Assembly (NCBI GenBank): GCA_965602015.1
Contig: OZ271918.1
Span: forward strand, 1,728,001 to 1,792,000
Direction: 5' to 3'
DNA length: 64,000 nucleotides
Source of the DNA: Salinispira sp.
Lineage (GTDB): Bacteria; Spirochaetota; Spirochaetia; DSM-27196; Salinispiraceae
The notes under the pieces are model-generated. The model was not told where the DNA came from, made no database searches, and worked only from the letters and a program-made list of their open reading frames with translations. The position numbers and the translations under genes are program-made. Positions 586 through 15,973 of this stretch are shown one piece after another. Within the stretch, counting starts at the first letter, position 1, and every line of letters starts with the position of its first letter.

Positions 586-685
586 ACATAACAACCACTT
601 AACCTGTGAGCCGTACATTGGCGCGTGTTTTTGCGAATGCAAAAACCGTGACAATAGGCGAATCAGGTTGAAGTGCCTGTTATAT
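586..685 (-). repeat. attC site
   Basis: Minus strand ATATAAC-AGGCACTTCAACCTGA...TCACAGGTTAAGTGGTT-GTTATGT, imperfect hairpin with R''/L''/L'/R' layout. Confidence 0.92.
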
Positions 686-1084
686 GGCCAAATCTCTCAA
701 CAACCAAGATCAGTTCCCTACACCTTGTTTCCAACCTTCGACCCGCTTTCAATTATGATCCACTAAACTACGCAGATTTTCAATAATCTCACCGAAGTAG
801 CTGCAGGAGTGAGGGAAAATCAGATTAACCCCCGGTCTACTTCTCGAATCCCCTAACCCAAACGAGAATCCAATTTCAAAACTTTTCAGGATTCGATTTC
901 CACCCCGATGTTACTTGCCGAGGGAATCATTCACATAATTCCAATTTTCATAGTATGCCCAAGCAAAACCACCAAAATTTTTTAATAAGATTCGAGTAAT
1001 AAAATGAGGAGCGAATGATCTTTAAAGCCCGAAGAAACCCGGAATTCAAGAAATTATGAGAACATGAAACTTCGTCCATATAAC
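679..1084 (-). other. Gene-less integron cassette A' (cassette 11)
   Basis: Ends GTTATATGG/CCATATAAC are complementary; no ORF >=60 aa; near copy of 14163-14570. Confidence 0.8.
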
Positions 1085-1238
1085 GAGGCTGTAGAAAAAG
1101 TCCCTGCAGCCATCAATAATTCTACCCGGACAGGCCTTTATAGGCAAAGCATAAAATGGCCTTCGTTTAATAAAGCGACTACGCCACCCTGTGTTTCCGG
1201 ATTGCACTGGGAATCTCCAGTATGCCTCTCTTTCTTTT

Positions 1239-2018
1239 CTACTGCCAGCACATCTTCAGCTTTTCTATATTGTGCACCATACAAAACAACCGCCACTGGG
1301 TATTTACTTTTGTCTTCCCTCGCACCGTGAATCTGTTCAGCCCCTTGGTTCCGCATAAATCACCGAACACCGGTTCAACCGCCCCCATTCGCCGGGAGTA
1401 AATGCTTCGTGCCTCTGAGGTATCAAATCTGTCCTGACTAATCTTTAGGTAATCGATGGTCTGTGGCGTTTGTGTCCGCTTAAAAAACGTCACCTGCCTG
1501 AATGGACTTGCAGGTTTTCGAATACACTTGCTACGCAACTCACAATTGCTGCACTGTTCTTTGCTTGCCCTGTACCGATCCCCGACGAGCTTTCCGTCGG
1601 CGGATTTGAAATTCTTCATGTTTAGCCGCAATATATGCCCGGCCGGACAGGTAGCTATTTTCTTTTTCCGGTCGTAGTGAAAATCTGAGGGCTGGAAGTA
1701 GCGTTTGGTATGTACCGCCCTCCAGTTATCAGTTTTCTTTTTATGAACTTCATTGCCAGTGAAGCGGATATCACGCTTGCGAAACTGATTATCCGGGATA
1801 TATGCTTCAATCCCATGTTCAATGAGATACTTCATATTCACAGCGTTATGAAACCCAGAGTCTGCTGTGATCACGGTTTTCCCGTAAATGTCAGATGAGA
1901 TCCCGGTACTGCGGCATTGTTTCTTAATACCAGTCAAGATTTCCGGCAAATGACCGGATTCATTGATATCACCATAGGCTTCGGCCCATACAATGACCTG
2001 ATGTTTATCATCAACTGC
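1239..2018 (-). pseudogene. IS1182 transposase, C-terminal fragment
   Basis: ADSGF, CPAGH, C-x2-C-x4-C, YSRRMGAVEPVFG, HNIEKL motifs; joins in frame to 4945-5707 (YNGIAAVDDKHQV). Confidence 0.9.
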
Positions 2019-2218
2019 TGTAGCCTCTCAAATTAAATTGATCAAACCAGCATAGAAAATCTCACAAACAGTTAAACAATCTCTCATTCCACTTAGACCG
2101 GAAATTTTATCTGCCGACAAAAAAAGAGCAATGGTGTTGAAGTTTGCCGACTCCCCATTGCTCTTAAAACCTCACCCCCAAAGGGGGCAAATAAACGTTA
2201 CTTATTTGTCGGATAGTT

Positions 2219-2716
2219 TTGGAAAAACTTCAAGCGCTTGGGAAACAGTTCCACTGGAAAAAACCTGAATGTTGTCCCGAGTGTGGAAGCATACGGCTAT
2301 GGGGGCACGGCTTCGTTCTTCGGCAGTTTGTCGGGTTTGCCCAAGGACTGTGGATGAAGCGGTATCGATGTCCGGACTGCCATGGGGTTCATACCTGTAG
2401 GCCACAGCAGTTCTTGCCGGGGATGCAATATCCTGTTCAAACTCAAATCTCCAGCCTGGAAGCAAAGCTTGCAGGAAAGCCGTTCCTTCAAACTGTGTCG
2501 AGGCAGATCCAGCAGCATTGGTGGAAGACATTTCTCAACCACTGCCGCCGTAGCGGCAACTGGACTGCCCCACATTCGGTTTTCCTCCGCAGGCAGAGCG
2601 ATGATCAAATACCAGTAACAACCAGGCGAATATACCGTGAGATCTGGTCAGAAGCCTGCGTACCCTACCTGCCTTTTGCGCTGACAGTGAAACCGCGTCC
2701 ATTTAGCCTTGAGTGA
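2219..2716 (+). CDS. Zn-ribbon accessory protein of transposable element (DUF6431-like)
   Basis: CPEC...HG...RYRCPDC; first gene of the element; start may be upstream (ACG 2195). Confidence 0.7.
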   Translation: MEKLQALGKQFHWKKPECCPECGSIRLWGHGFVLRQFVGFAQGLWMKRYRCPDCHGVHTCRPQQFLPGMQYPVQTQISSLEAKLAGKPFLQTVSRQIQQHWWKTFLNHCRRSGNWTAPHSVFLRRQSDDQIPVTTRRIYREIWSEACVPYLPFALTVKPRPFSLE

Positions 2717-2745
2717 GAAAACGTATCACTCTCAAGGAGGAGAAA

Positions 2746-4029
2746 ATGGACAGAGAAAAGAAAGAAAAGATCGCAGTATTCCGCTTCGGGGTCATCTTTC
2801 CGCTTGTGGAGAAAGACCTACACCAGTATTGGGGAGAGAAAGAGCGAATCCTGCGGGAGCTGGTCAGCAAGGAATGGGAGATTCCCTTTTCAAACCGAAA
2901 CTACATCAGCAAGGCCACCATCCTGACCTGGGTAAAGCGCTACGAAGATGGCGGGCGGAAGATTGAAGCCTTGTTTCCTGAGAATCGCGGCGACAAGGGC
3001 CGGATGAGAAGCATTTCCGATGAACAAATCGATGCGCTCATGCTGCTTCGAAAAGAGCATCCAAAACTCTCCACCCCGCGTCTGGTTGAAATTGCTCAAG
3101 GAAACGGCGTCTTTCCGTCCGGAAAAGAGGTCTCCATGGCCAGCATTTACCGGCTCATGAAGATCCGCAAAGCCCAACGGGTCAAAGTCGAGTCTGACAT
3201 GAGGAAGTTCGAGGTACAATTGCCCAACGACCTGTGGCAGTCAGACTGCATGCACGGTCCGAAAGTTCTGCATGGCGGGAAACTGAGAAAGACCTATCTG
3301 TTTGCAATCATTGACGACCATTCAAGGCTCATTACCCATGGCCAGTTCTACCTGGCTGAAACACTGGAAAATTACCTGGACTGCTTATGGACGGCGTTAC
3401 GCAAGCGGGGAGTTCCCCGAAAGCTCTATGTCGATAACGGGGCATCATTTAAGGCGCACAGGCTCCAGTTGGGATGTGCTTCGCTGGAAATCGGGCTGCG
3501 CTATGCACGGCCGTACCGACCCCAGGGAAAGGGCAAGATTGAACGGTTCTTTCGTACCGTACGTAGCCAGTTTATCCCCGAGCTGCCTGATGAACTTCCT
3601 CTGGATGAGATCAACCGGCTGTTTCACCACTACATTGAAAACGGTTATCACCAGAGGATCCATGGCGGTACGGGGCAGAAGCCCCTGGAGCGTTACCTGC
3701 AGGATGCCCATGCCTTGCGAAAAGCGCCGGAGAACTTGCCTGAATACTTTCGAAAACGCGAGGAGCGAACGGTAAACAACGACCGGACGGTGAAACTCGA
3801 TGGCCGTTTGTATGAAGCCCCTGCGGGATTGGTTGGCATGAAAGTCGTCCTGCGTTTTGAGAATTACGACCGGATTGAAGTCTTTCTCGAGAATCAGTCA
3901 AAGGGATTCTTAAGGGATCTGGATCAGGGAGTGAACAGCCGCATTAAGCGGGACGGCACGGGTCCGGTCATGCCGTCGGCTTCGGGGGGAGCTCTTTTTG
4001 AAAAGCTGGGCTCAAAGGCAGGTAGCTAA
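2746..4029 (+). CDS. DDE integrase/transposase (rve core, Mu/IS481-like)
   Basis: WQSD, IIDDHSR, YVDNG, GKGKIERFF; RBS AAGGAGGAG before ATG 2746. Confidence 0.92.
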   Translation: MDREKKEKIAVFRFGVIFPLVEKDLHQYWGEKERILRELVSKEWEIPFSNRNYISKATILTWVKRYEDGGRKIEALFPENRGDKGRMRSISDEQIDALMLLRKEHPKLSTPRLVEIAQGNGVFPSGKEVSMASIYRLMKIRKAQRVKVESDMRKFEVQLPNDLWQSDCMHGPKVLHGGKLRKTYLFAIIDDHSRLITHGQFYLAETLENYLDCLWTALRKRGVPRKLYVDNGASFKAHRLQLGCASLEIGLRYARPYRPQGKGKIERFFRTVRSQFIPELPDELPLDEINRLFHHYIENGYHQRIHGGTGQKPLERYLQDAHALRKAPENLPEYFRKREERTVNNDRTVKLDGRLYEAPAGLVGMKVVLRFENYDRIEVFLENQSKGFLRDLDQGVNSRIKRDGTGPVMPSASGGALFEKLGSKAGS

Positions 4030-4835
4030 TGGATACGCTGCGCCACCACTTTGGATTCCGGCACAACCCGTTCCCGCAGAATGTAGCGGTAAAGGACCTG
4101 TACCCCTTACCGGCATTGGAACCCCTGCGGCAGCGGGTGTTCTTTGCCCTGGAGCAGAAAGCCATTGCCGTCATCACCGGAGATGTGGGGTCGGGAAAGT
4201 CTACGTCATTGCGCTATGTCTCAAGCAAATGCCATTCGAGTGAGTATGAACTGATTACCATTGTCGGCGGGAACTTCTCACCCATGGAACTGTACCGGCA
4301 GATCCTGCTCACTTTCGGCATGAGCTATATGTCGTTCCAGGTATCGATCATGATCTCGAAGATCCGGGAGCTTATTCTGGAAATTGCATCCCGCAATGTC
4401 ATCCCGGTGCTGGTAATCGATGAGGCTCATCTGCTGAAACGGTCAGTGTTTACCCAGCTGCATACCCTTGCTCAGTTTGAATTCGATTCCAAACCGGTCA
4501 TGCCGATGATTCTCTGCGGTCAGGATTTCCTGCTCGATCATCTGATGGCTAACTCAGTTCGGCCTCTGGCGTCCCGGGTGCTGGGCAAGAATCATCTGGA
4601 GTCTATTAAGAAGGAGGTGATGGAAGATTACCTGAATCATCACATCACCCTGGCCGGGGGAACAAAGAAAGCATTCAGTGATGAGGCGATCTTTGCCATT
4701 CATCAGGGATCCGGTGGTCTCTTGCGGAAAGCCAACTCCCTGGCGAAAACGGCTCTCCTTGCCTGCGCCGGAGATGGTGGACAGACTGTTTCTGCAGAAC
4801 ACGTCCGGGTCGCTTCCACCGAGATTTTTATGTAA
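4029..4835 (+). CDS. ExeA-family AAA+ ATPase (transposition helper)
   Basis: Walker A GDVGSGKS, Walker B VIDEAH; start overlaps the transposase stop. Confidence 0.9.
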   Translation: MDTLRHHFGFRHNPFPQNVAVKDLYPLPALEPLRQRVFFALEQKAIAVITGDVGSGKSTSLRYVSSKCHSSEYELITIVGGNFSPMELYRQILLTFGMSYMSFQVSIMISKIRELILEIASRNVIPVLVIDEAHLLKRSVFTQLHTLAQFEFDSKPVMPMILCGQDFLLDHLMANSVRPLASRVLGKNHLESIKKEVMEDYLNHHITLAGGTKKAFSDEAIFAIHQGSGGLLRKANSLAKTALLACAGDGGQTVSAEHVRVASTEIFM

Positions 4836-4841
4836 ATGCTG

Positions 4842-4865
4842 CCCCTGCCGCGAATGCGGCAGGGG
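4842..4865 (+). terminator. GC-rich hairpin after the ATPase gene
   Basis: CCCCTGCCGC-GAAT-GCGGCAGGGG; no clean U-tract. Confidence 0.5.
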
Positions 4866-4944
4866 GTACCCTTCGTCAGTTTTACTTGTAAAATTGTTTG
4901 TCTGTACGTGCGAGGGTTAGGCTAATTTAATGTGCGAAGCTACA

Positions 4945-5707
4945 CTGCAGCAATTCCATTGTAGCCTTGAATGACACCATGGGAACTGACCATTTTTGCA
5001 CTCTCATTGTCGGTGAGATTACTCTTCACCGGTTTGCCTGAGGCACCAAGCCTGTCATCATTATCATCCAGCCAGCGGTTGATTTTATCTGCCTTGGTTT
5101 CCAGCTTTTTGATTGCTGCAATTTCCTGAACTTGATTCTCAGCAGGTGATTTCTGACCATCCTCATTTTGATGCTTTTCAACCAGGTAGGCGATGGACTT
5201 TCTGATACTCCTGACTTTCTTCAGAAGCTCCGCCTTGGTCCCGCTCCATTCCTTGGAACAGTTTGATGAAATCTTGCAGCCATCTATGGCAAACATTTCC
5301 TTGCCAATCAGGTTCTCTGAATAACAGATGGCAAGCACCTTGGTGAACAAATCGACACATTCACTATCCATAGTTGCAATAAAATCGGCGATGGTGGTGT
5401 GATGCGGATGTGTATCGGCGGACAGAGCCATACAGATAATATTCTCATCACAAAACCGGGCAATCTTGCGACTGCTGGTTATCCCCCGTGAATAGGCAAA
5501 GAGAATAATCTTCAAAAGCACCGCCGGGTTATAGGCCGGGGCACCGGTAATATCATTCTGGCACCGCGACTCGAAAATAGAAAGATCAAGTTTTTTGCTG
5601 AAGAGGATGTGGAGTGTATGCTCAAATGTTCCAGGCAGAATTTGTTTTGACAGATTGACCGGCAGCATTAACTGCTGATCGTAGGAATAGTCTTTGTATC
5701 GAGGCAT
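4945..5707 (-). pseudogene. IS1182 transposase, N-terminal fragment
   Basis: GAPAYNP..LLKIILFAY..GITSSRKI, AIDGCKI, NLTDNESA; RBS GGGAGG before ATG 5707. Confidence 0.9.
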
Positions 5708-5790
5708 GCCGTCCCTCCCATAGGCTGGCTGATACATGAATTTTACCATGGAACTACATTTACTAGAAGCGGGACTTTTTCTACAGCCTC

Positions 5791-5903
5791 AACAACCACT
5801 TAACCTGTGAGCCGTACATTGGCGTGGAGTTTGCCCTGCCCTTCAGGGCAGGAACAGCAAAATCCATGACAATAGGCGAATCAGGTTGAAGTGCTTGTTA
5901 AAT
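5791..5903 (-). repeat. attC site (R' end abuts the IS1182)
   Basis: AACAACCACTTAACCTGTGAG...AATCAGGTTGAAGTGCTTGTTAAAT on + strand. Confidence 0.92.
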
Positions 5904-5910
5904 GCCCATT

Positions 5911-6339
5911 TCATTTCCCAATTATATTTTCAATCTCTTCAAGAAATTGATTTGTTAAGGATGGAATCTTCTTAATAATCGATTCGATCGAATCTTTTTT
6001 GAGTTCAAACGCATATGCATGCCTGACAAAATGACGGAAGCTGAGAAAAGATTTAAGTTCGTCAAAGATCTTATCAGATATGATCTGATTGTCTTTAGAT
6101 GATTTCAATAAGTTCAGATGCCAAGAATCGTCTTTGGCAATCAGAATCTGTTTGGATTCCAATACAAATCGAAGAATTTTCTCTATTCCGTTATAGATTG
6201 CAGTTGTTGTAAGAGCCAATCCGCGAATTTCAATTTCATCTAGTTCTTTATTTTCTATTTTCTTTGCATACAACTCGATAAATGACTTTTCTTCATCGAT
6301 ATTCTGAATTTCAATCTGTATTTTTTGGATAGGATCCAT
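5911..6339 (-). CDS. HEPN-domain RNase toxin (HepT-like)
   Basis: RX4H motif RHFVRH; directly downstream of MNT. Confidence 0.85.
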   Translation of the reverse strand: MDPIQKIQIEIQNIDEEKSFIELYAKKIENKELDEIEIRGLALTTTAIYNGIEKILRFVLESKQILIAKDDSWHLNLLKSSKDNQIISDKIFDELKSFLSFRHFVRHAYAFELKKDSIESIIKKIPSLTNQFLEEIENIIGK

Positions 6340-6636
6340 CTATGCCACCCGGAGAATTTCATCGGATTGTAGCAATATTCTGCCGAATTTTTCCTGAAGT
6401 TGCAGATCGACAAGATCGATTTGATGTTCGAGCAAGAACATCAATTCTCCATAAACTTCAAAAATTTTTTCAGCGGGTATTCCCTTCACGGCTATATCGA
6501 GATCTGATTTTTCGTTTGCTTTTCCAGTTACGGCAGATCCAAAAATATAAATTTCTGAGCAACCGATGTCTTTTAAATAGGAAATTGCTTTTTCAACATC
6601 AGTTGCATATCTGGAATCCAATTTTAATTCGGTCAT
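6340..6636 (-). CDS. Minimal nucleotidyltransferase antitoxin (MntA-like)
   Basis: FGS...SDLDIAV...IDLV motif. Confidence 0.88.
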   Translation of the reverse strand: MTELKLDSRYATDVEKAISYLKDIGCSEIYIFGSAVTGKANEKSDLDIAVKGIPAEKIFEVYGELMFLLEHQIDLVDLQLQEKFGRILLQSDEILRVA

Positions 6637-14069: not shown

Positions 14070-14169
14070 GCATAACAACCACTTAACCTGTGAGCCGTAC
14101 ATTGGCGCGCGTTTTTGCGAATGCAAAAACCGTGACAATAGGCGAATCAGGTTGAAGTGCCTGTTATAT
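14070..14169 (-). repeat. attC site
   Basis: Near-identical to 586-685, including the GTGCCTGTT variant. Confidence 0.92.
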
Positions 14170-14570
14170 GGCCAAATCTTTCAACAACCAAGATCAGTTC
14201 CCTACACCTTGTTTCCAACCTTCGACCCGCTTTCAATTATGATCCACTAAACTACGCAGATTTTCAATAATCTCACCGAAGTAGCTGCGGGAGTGAGGGA
14301 AAAACCAGATTAACCCCCGGTCTACTTCTCGAATCCCCTAATCCAAACGAGAATCCAATTTCAAAACATTTCAGGATTCAACCTCCACCCCGATGTTACT
14401 TGCCGAGGGAATCACTTACATAATTCCAATCTTCCAGGGAAGCCCAAGCAAAAACACCAAAAATTTTCCAATCAGATTCGAGTAATAAAATGAAGAGCGA
14501 ATGATCTTTAAAGCCCGAAGAAGCCCGGTATTCAAGAAATTGTGAGAACATGAAACTTCGTCCATATAAC
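14163..14570 (-). other. Gene-less integron cassette A (first position)
   Basis: Between attI and the first attC; ends GTTATATGG/CCATATAAC. Confidence 0.8.
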
Positions 14571-14604
14571 AACCCACTTATGCTGAAAACCCTTGCATGC
14601 TGAA
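14564..14604 (-). other. attI site
   Basis: Last GTT core (TAAGTGGGTT-GTTATAT) before intI with no partner arm; ATGCTGAA direct repeats at 14580 and 14597. Confidence 0.75.
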
Positions 14605-14631
14605 TTGTAGCATAACTCCGAAAGCTGTGAA
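14604..14631 (-). promoter_or_regulatory. Candidate cassette promoter Pc
   Basis: TTCACA-16-TACAAT with extended -10 TG, pointing into the array. Confidence 0.55.
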
Positions 14632-14713
14632 AAGGTAGATAAGTCATTGCAGATATCTGGTTTTCTGCTTAAGTGCATTTTGAATCAAATCAGGAAAAAA
14701 ATCGGTTGGTTAG

Positions 14714-15973
14714 TTGATGAATAACCCAAAAGCAACCAAAAAAACAACTGCGCGCAGTTTCTCTGAGTATTTGCTTCGCGATCTGGGCCTTCAGGAGAAG
14801 GAAATACCACATTACATCAGGTGGGTCAAAATGTTCCGTCGCCATTGTGCCGATCACAAGCCTACAACTGAGCTTATCCAGGAATTCCTGCAACGGAAAA
14901 TGTCGGGCTTTGAAGGCTGGCAGATACAGCAAGCGAACAGGGCAATCCGCATTTATCTGCGACAGACTATGCCGGAAGTGTTTCGTTTTGCATTGGATGA
15001 ACCACAAGAAGCATGGCGAGAATTTATCGGGAAGACCAGAGACGAATTGCGCTTCCAGAACAAAGCATACCAAACGGAAAAATCATACCTCCGCTGGTTG
15101 GCCTCTTTCGGAGATTTTGTGAATAGAAAGCCTGTGAACGATCTTTGTGAGGGTGATGTAAAACGCTATCTAACATACTTGGCGGATAAAAAACGGGTGG
15201 CAAAGGCTACCCAAAATCAGGCGTTTAACGCCCTGCTTTTTGCCTTTCGGCATGTTTTAGGAATTTCAATTTCTAATCTTCAACACGTTATTCGCGCCCG
15301 GCACAGTTTGAGGCTGCCGGTTGTTCTGAGTAAGGATGAAATCTTATTGATCCTCGGCCAACTGAAAGAAAAACATCGACTCATGTGTCAGTTGATATAC
15401 AGCAGCGGCTTGCGAATTACCGAATTACTGTCCCTGAGAGTCAAAGATTTGGATTTTGATAATCAGCTGATTAATGTGCGTTCGGGAAAGGGTGATAAAG
15501 ACCGGCAGACCCTGCTTTCGGCCAGGCTCATTCCACAGCTCCAAAATCATCTACGGGAAGTTCGTTACTGGTATGAGTTGGACAGAAAAGAAGACCGAAA
15601 TGGAGTTGAGCTGCCAAAATCTCTTGAACGGAAATATAAAAATGCGGGAAAGGAATGGGGATGGTTTTGGCTTTTTCCTGCAAACAGATTGTCCATAGAT
15701 CCAAGAAGCGCCGTTGTCCGCCGATATCATGTGCTTCCCGGGGCCCTGCAAAAGGATTTTAAAACAGCGGTATTGCGCGCAAAAATCCCGAAGCAGGCCA
15801 GCGTTCATACCCTGCGGCACAGTTTTGCCACCCATCTTATCGAGACGGGGTATGATGTGAGGACAGTACAGGAGCTGCTTGGCCATTCCAATCTCAACAC
15901 AACAATGGTGTACACACATGTCGCGGCAAAAAACAAGTTAGGAGTAATTAGCCCGCTTGATAGCTTGTCATAA
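14714..15973 (+). CDS. intI: Integron integrase
   Basis: GLRITE, GKGDKDR, IntI patch ELPKSLERKY..AGKEWGWFWLFPA, HTLRHSFATHL, LGH, YTH. Confidence 0.96.
   Translation: MMNNPKATKKTTARSFSEYLLRDLGLQEKEIPHYIRWVKMFRRHCADHKPTTELIQEFLQRKMSGFEGWQIQQANRAIRIYLRQTMPEVFRFALDEPQEAWREFIGKTRDELRFQNKAYQTEKSYLRWLASFGDFVNRKPVNDLCEGDVKRYLTYLADKKRVAKATQNQAFNALLFAFRHVLGISISNLQHVIRARHSLRLPVVLSKDEILLILGQLKEKHRLMCQLIYSSGLRITELLSLRVKDLDFDNQLINVRSGKGDKDRQTLLSARLIPQLQNHLREVRYWYELDRKEDRNGVELPKSLERKYKNAGKEWGWFWLFPANRLSIDPRSAVVRRYHVLPGALQKDFKTAVLRAKIPKQASVHTLRHSFATHLIETGYDVRTVQELLGHSNLNTTMVYTHVAAKNKLGVISPLDSLS

Follow-up and report, generated by a model that had tools for sequence, protein, structure and literature searches.

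The window analysed here, a stretch of 64,000 nucleotides from the forward strand of a Salinispira sp. genome (Spirochaetota; contig OZ271918.1, positions 1,728,001 to 1,792,000), contains a chromosomal integron whose integrase, IntI, is encoded at 14714-15973 on the plus strand and whose cassettes lie on the minus strand. One attC site of this array (5791-5903) abuts an insertion sequence (IS) related to the IS1182 family, which spans 1085-5790 (4,706 bp), is bounded by perfect 20-bp inverted repeats (IRs) and has AAC on both sides (1082-1084 and 5791-5793). On the cassette strand this AAC is the GTT of the attC R' box, the triplet within which we take the IntI crossover to be placed. From comparison with its relatives we consider it very probable that the element belongs to a separate clade, related to IS1182, and that the DDE transposase of the IS itself carries out insertion at the GTT crossover triplet of attC R' boxes. 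The features of the locus, in window coordinates, are as follows (G000 is the host genome; ORF, open reading frame).

1082-1084: target-site duplication on the downstream-cassette side (GTT on the cassette strand)
1085-1104, minus strand: perfect 20-bp inverted repeat at the right end of the IS
1239-2018, minus strand: transposase gene (IS1182 family), 3' part, with domain DDE_Tnp_1_6 and residues D306, the zinc-finger cysteines and E468
2019-4944, plus strand: nested 2,926-bp mobile element with TG...CA ends and a 4-bp repeat, CTGC
2219-2716: DUF6431 gene of the nested element
2713-4029: IS481-like/Mu-type DDE transposase gene of the nested element
4029-4835: ExeA-like AAA ATPase gene of the nested element
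4945-5707, minus strand: 5' part of the IS1182-family transposase gene (DUF772; D142)
5771-5790, minus strand: left inverted repeat of the IS
5791-5793: target-site duplication retained as the R' GTT of the attC
5791-5903, minus strand: target attC site, hairpin whole
5911-6636, minus strand: upstream cassette, a nucleotidyltransferase and HepT-like pair (IS-free twin at G000:3453959-3454908)
590-1084, minus strand: downstream cassette, lacking a long ORF and sharing 94.6% identity with the array's first cassette (14074-14570)
14714-15973, plus strand: integron integrase IntI, divergent from the array
About 14568-14640: attI-like site just left of IntI

The target attC follows the R''/L''/L'/R' layout given in PMC7923331. 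Its hairpin (5791-5899, minus strand) reads R'', 5 nt and an L'' with an extra C, then L', 5 nt and R', with the L boxes pairing at 7/7 positions. The site thus has canonical geometry and a bottom-strand hairpin, and it stands in an array with an IntI that scored 379.5 bits against TIGR02249 (cut-off 265). The predicted bottom-strand fold was -30.0 kcal/mol for the occupied site and -30.9 kcal/mol for its empty twin, in agreement with the earlier note on this DNA, which had proposed that the hairpin is left whole.

The host genome (one contig of 3.87 Mb) holds exactly two copies of the IS, both at the R' of an attC. The window copy is dead, its transposase gene being broken by the nested three-gene element, which also accounts for its length of 4,706 bp as against 1,776 bp for the intact copy. 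The latter (G000:1717456-1719231) shows no base difference from the window copy once the nested element is set aside, and it occupies the R' of another attC 11.6 kb away. The 512-aa transposase, which the earlier note had rebuilt, thus exists naturally in intact form (gene at G000:1717613-1719148); it starts at the ATG corresponding to 5707, and an upstream ATG at 5749 would give 526 aa. The 950-bp upstream cassette of the window copy recurs in a second array at 99.8% identity with an empty site and a single AAC, from which it follows that the AAC pair is a true duplication, as the earlier note had held. The downstream cassette likewise occurs free of the IS, adjoining attI. A genome of the same genus contains four right ends of the IS and three left ends that are intact. 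Each of them adjoins an attC GTT, the right ends lie at R' in 4/4 cases, and two of the target types have empty twins. The second array of the host (G000:3440600-3456100) has no nearby intI and shares cassettes with the window array, and a solo attC lies 100 kb from it at G000:3339523. An IR search for miniature inverted-repeat transposable elements in the host genome (up to 4 mismatches) found none, returning the four ends of the two copies and ten chance hits with 4 mismatches.

The transposase is encoded by a single ORF with DUF772 and DDE_Tnp_1_6 domains and an intact DDE triad, and Pfam and NCBIfam yielded DDE/IS1182 models only. Residues D142, D306 and E468, together with four cysteines, were invariant among 111 relatives. 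Against NCBIfam NF033551 the protein scored 265.3 bits (cut-off 270; E 1e-78; positions 32-485 of 488 of the model), and its close relatives carry the NCBI annotation 'IS1182 family transposase'. Identity to named IS1182 members is only 25-28%. The element has the terminal inverted repeats and target-site repeat that are hallmarks of the family, and an Atlas search returned IS1182-type clusters only. No solved structure was matched by sequence; by structure, the model (pLDDT 84) most resembled the transposase of Tn5 (Foldseek E 1e-5; VIA Z 15.9, root-mean-square deviation 5.4 over 265 residues).

For the wider clade we assembled 55 loci from genome contigs and 79 from metagenome contigs (from the best 80 of 151 metagenome matches), at roughly 37-70% identity and from Spirochaetota, Desulfobacterota, Gamma- and Betaproteobacteria and Nitrospirota. 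IS ends were located using inside sequence only; 244 were examined, 18 were excluded for weak IR score and the remainder were de-duplicated to 217 distinct ends. The flanking triplet was GTT or AAC at 214 of these (193 GTT, 21 AAC, 3 other), and at 62/62 ends of held-out loci from the genome samples (5 ends excluded). An identical repeat, always exactly 3 bp long, flanked 79 of the 80 complete copies. In a quick-mode tree, as all our trees were, 35 clade proteins separated from 10 distant IS1182 proteins with SH-aLRT support of 100; of the elements of these outgroup proteins, seven had 4-6-bp repeats of other sequence, two had none and one gave no ends. A metagenome from another study contained a 1,784-bp near-copy, 96% identical (73 differences), on contigs that break off at these AAC junctions and differ in the flanks beyond them. 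No IS circle or empty-site joint was listed among the assembled contigs to which that search was confined, nor any RNA data set holding the element. We did not meet the lineage in clinical plasmids; of the 50 best plasmid matches listed, just three were above 40% identity, and these came from marine bacteria.

Orientation was fixed within sub-lineages, and roughly nine in ten IS copies pointed the same way as the cassettes. AAC-flanked elements also insert at the R' triplet but face the other way (at 6 of the 49 sites that pass the strict test described below), which requires at least two switches on the tree, with three held-out AAC loci left unplaced. The opposite-orientation loci are L036, L041, L046, L098, L100, L106, L108, L115, L121, L164, L167 and L169. 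Eight complete copies are present in Desulfospira joergensenii (L016-L027), far from both of its intI genes, several of them at very short (42-53 nt) solo attC-like hairpins and two within genes.

Our strict attC test demanded Y/G-AAC, a spacer, an L'' with one extra base pairing at 6 or 7 of 7 positions with L', a second spacer and GTT. This geometry was found at 49 of 89 testable insertion sites, compared with 104 of the 12,053 other GTTs of the same loci, and the spacer was 5 or 6 nt in all 49. The mirror geometry, with insertion at R'', occurred at 0/89 sites and 0/28 held-out sites. The strict geometry was present at 10/28 held-out sites, a set that includes spirochaetes of other classes whose long repeats fail it. 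An earlier, first box test had given 55/88 sites against 57/1,333 controls; an energy-based attC detector (43/89 against 44/503 at its middle threshold) was noisier and was dropped in favour of the box test. Judged by these sequence comparisons, targeting of attC R' is real and reproducible across phyla, and the earlier note's suggestion of a new attC-targeting IS1182 element, made from one insertion, now has strong, clade-wide support.

Several observations weigh against this interpretation or narrow it. The strict test was failed by 40 of the 89 sites; many of these resemble short, long or decayed attC sites by eye, and about a dozen do not. When the target motif was learned from other genera, some 240 GTT sites scored above the median attC of the host; the placement of both host copies at attC sites is thus more than the motif by itself can account for. 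The linear motif also transferred poorly: percentiles were 85, 3, 81 and 74 for four held-out non-attC sites and 68, 93, 2 and 90 for four sites in other-class spirochaetes. The association with intI was not significant in the host phylum (2/7 carriers and 41/344 other genomes), and related genomes and metagenome near-copies are not independent of each other.

In the mechanism that we favour, the transposase would join each IS end to one strand of a duplex R' with a 3-nt stagger. In the IS1272 model, as set out in PMC5678879, joints on extruded hairpins lead to duplication or loss of the stem-loop; because joining on a folded single strand would duplicate or delete the hairpin in full, the exact 3-bp repeat points to both R' strands being joined in duplex. 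We read the target as an absolutely needed GTT with a preference for the L' box 5-7 nt upstream, an asymmetry that would fix both position and orientation, perhaps helped by extrusion of the hairpin. IntI would be unnecessary for the insertion chemistry. The upstream cassette would retain a working attC and the IS would form the 5' end of the next cassette, so that the array would offer a low-cost, multi-copy refuge.

The target signal may be sequence or hairpin. It is possible, although we lean against it, that the same transposase reads mainly structure, the L-box stem being extruded as a cruciform, R' remaining duplex and the cut falling at the GTT that lies at a set distance, 5-6 nt, from the base of the stem. 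The palindromes at which some other IS1182 members act (PMC5678879) agree with this, as do the invariable 5- or 6-nt spacer of the strict sites and the targets in other-class spirochaetes, which are strong hairpins with a poor motif score. The motif evidence pulls the other way. The L' motif, roughly GCCGCTNA, scored far above 4,659 control GTTs at the 32 sites that do not pass the box test at 5 of 7, and still did so at the 16 of these that are hairpin-free (p = 8e-8). Five complete copies interrupt long ORFs, each with its GTT repeat and one within the transposase gene of another copy, at sites in the 94th-100th percentile of motif score. The near-symmetry of a cruciform contrasts with the complete lack of insertions at R''. 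With a leave-one-locus-out motif, R' outscored R'' at 49/49 sites. The motif trained on other genera placed the 30 attC sites of the host within the top 1,301 of 102,008 GTTs, at a median rank of 240. No sign of a guide RNA emerged: the longest contiguous exact match of non-coding ends to their own target averaged 6.8 nt, against 6.45 nt for other targets (n=54, p=0.28), a test whose scope does not extend to split or gapped guides, and the non-coding ends had no consistent fold (7/40 with z below -2).

The remaining alternatives concern what brings the IS to attC. Tethering of the transposase by an IntI or IntI-like recombinase bound to the L'/R' boxes seems unlikely to us, although the target motif is the IntI-binding half-site and intI is enriched among carriers in one class. 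In that sample of 401 genomes, where the IS is common (25 carriers), intI was present in 21/25 carriers and 145/376 others (18/22 and 144/375 without the centre genome and G395, G469 and G596, which are flagged unpublished), counts that were tallied by hand from two lists in a kind of test that is inflated by kinship and by assembly quality. At the thresholds used, TIGR02249 had no match in 4/25 carriers of the class or in 5/7 carriers of a phylum sample of 351 genomes, drafts that may be incomplete, and the transposase spans phyla whose integrases differ greatly. The five spirochaete carriers without canonical IntI do hold IntI-like recombinases, one of them 2.9 kb from an IS copy; we have dropped the label 'IntI-free' for these genomes, and the case against integrase involvement is weakened, not closed. 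That the IS needs only GTT/AAC, lands anywhere and appears at attC through purging of harmful insertions is very improbable. Some non-attC and intragenic insertions do exist and insertions at R' are nearly neutral, but attC R' triplets make up about 30 of the 102,008 host GTTs and yet hold 2/2 copies, and neither harmless GTTs between genes nor the R'' triplets of those sites are used. Least credible of all is the second proposal of the earlier note, that IntI captures an excised IS circle using its IR-AAC-IR junction as a recombination site. The product would look like a 3-bp duplication at the crossover, and single events are compatible with all the tests made. In an in silico fold, however, the junction triplet falls in a 3-nt loop, not in the stem, unlike attC; the insertions within ORFs leave such capture without an attC partner; the same junctions occur in carriers without canonical IntI; the DDE triad is invariant; and outgroup IS1182 elements normally have short repeats. 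Because copies sit inside genes and in genomes without canonical IntI, we argue for insertions made by the transposase and not by IntI capture.

As observations in their own right, the IntI-like tyrosine recombinases (30-34% identity) of Spirochaetota genomes without canonical IntI lack the IntI-specific insertion (loci G134:C1:1022961-1227424, G193:C2:42361-47529 and G267:C1:4335513-4427745), and the same genomes contain long attC-like hairpins followed by GTTRRRY that are targeted by the IS. Together these may possibly represent an unrecognised integron-like class.

If the IS is inserted by its transposase at R', as we propose, the geometry predicts that the upstream cassette should stay mobile and that the IS should leave with the next cassette. 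The earlier note's idea of hitchhiking on cassette shuffling follows from this arrangement and went unseen in the data: among 44 distinct complete copies, 0 pairs shared a downstream cassette behind different attC sites, and 2 pairs had an upstream flank in common instead. In one genome (G005) three IS copies lie behind copies of one repeated cassette and two further copies of it are empty; the cassette copies differ at 39-47 of 650 bases and the IS copies are 99.9% identical, a pattern that separate insertions would fit better than joint movement. We found no evidence for an outward promoter within the right end, where one site matched at 9 of 12 positions in a region with 9 such sites against 5.4 expected. 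More speculatively, a guide-free DDE transposase may have converged on the IntI half-site, the integron serving as refuge and vehicle: IntI would excise and re-insert the IS as the 5' end of the next cassette and could place the transposase gene first in the array, where the cassette promoter would drive it, tying transposition to SOS-driven shuffling. Were this so, the clade would lend itself naturally to site-specific delivery into cassette arrays of any kind, and its insertions would mark unrecognised integron-like arrays in genomes without canonical IntI. Recombination between co-oriented copies is predicted to delete, split and spread cassette arrays, and annotation pipelines should expect R' boxes that end in IS sequence.

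Elsewhere in the window, a C-5 cytosine methylase cassette at 1-495 is cut by the window start, and the array has two versions of the cassette that lacks a long ORF (590-1084 and 14074-14570, the latter in first position beside attI), making it a candidate promoter or RNA cassette. Three-gene elements of the nested type are present in six copies in the host genome, with 4-5-bp repeats and TG...CA ends; one copy lies within an attC arm (G000:3441497) and one is itself interrupted. Specificity of this element for attC was considered and rejected, only 1/6 copies being in an attC.

Beyond GTT/AAC, integron attC sites have almost no common sequence, and the choice of a degenerate or structured target by a DDE transposase, an open point for the IS1182 family, finds a tractable case here. 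In the full-text literature within our reach, which did not extend to ISfinder, TnPedia or subscription journals, we found no account of attC being targeted by an IS1182 element or by any other DDE element. In the accessible portions of PMC3001079, PMC11187229, PMC7923331, PMC8876359, PMC12444791, PMC3575428, PMC9137128, PMC4572688, 10.1101/2021.07.26.453812 and 10.1101/2022.09.12.507718, the passages that treat attC-targeting elements mention none besides group II introns and the IS1111-attC group. The present clade adds a new target class to a known IS family, and a third way of reaching attC sites, one that relies on protein alone. With the IS1182 family (ISPa7, ISPa22, IS1272; NF033551) it shares a DUF772 and DDE_Tnp_1_6 transposase of about 510 aa, a single ORF and short terminal IRs of similar sequence; members of that family make a 4-6-bp repeat or duplicate or replace a stem-loop, whereas the clade makes a 3-bp GTT/AAC repeat at the attC R' box. 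The two attC parasites described so far use RNA (a seekRNA or an intron ribozyme) at the far end of the site, whereas the clade employs an ordinary DDE protein that acts at the crossover itself, without damage. Group IIC-attC introns are likewise attC parasites, of integrons and of clusters of attC sites lacking integron integrases (CALINs; PMC7923331), but are retroelements that reverse-splice into the bottom strand at R'', separate the gene from its attC and make no target duplication. The IS1111-attC group (ISPa21, ISPst6, ISKpn4) is, like the clade, a monophyletic IS lineage targeting the attC sites of cassette arrays (PMC3001079 and PMC11187229). Its transposase is of the DEDD (IS110) type, its non-coding region encodes a target-matching RNA of which we saw no counterpart here, and it inserts antisense near the attC 5' end, whereas the DDE enzyme of the clade uses the 3' crossover triplet at R' in all strict sites, mostly co-oriented with the cassettes and leaving the hairpin whole.

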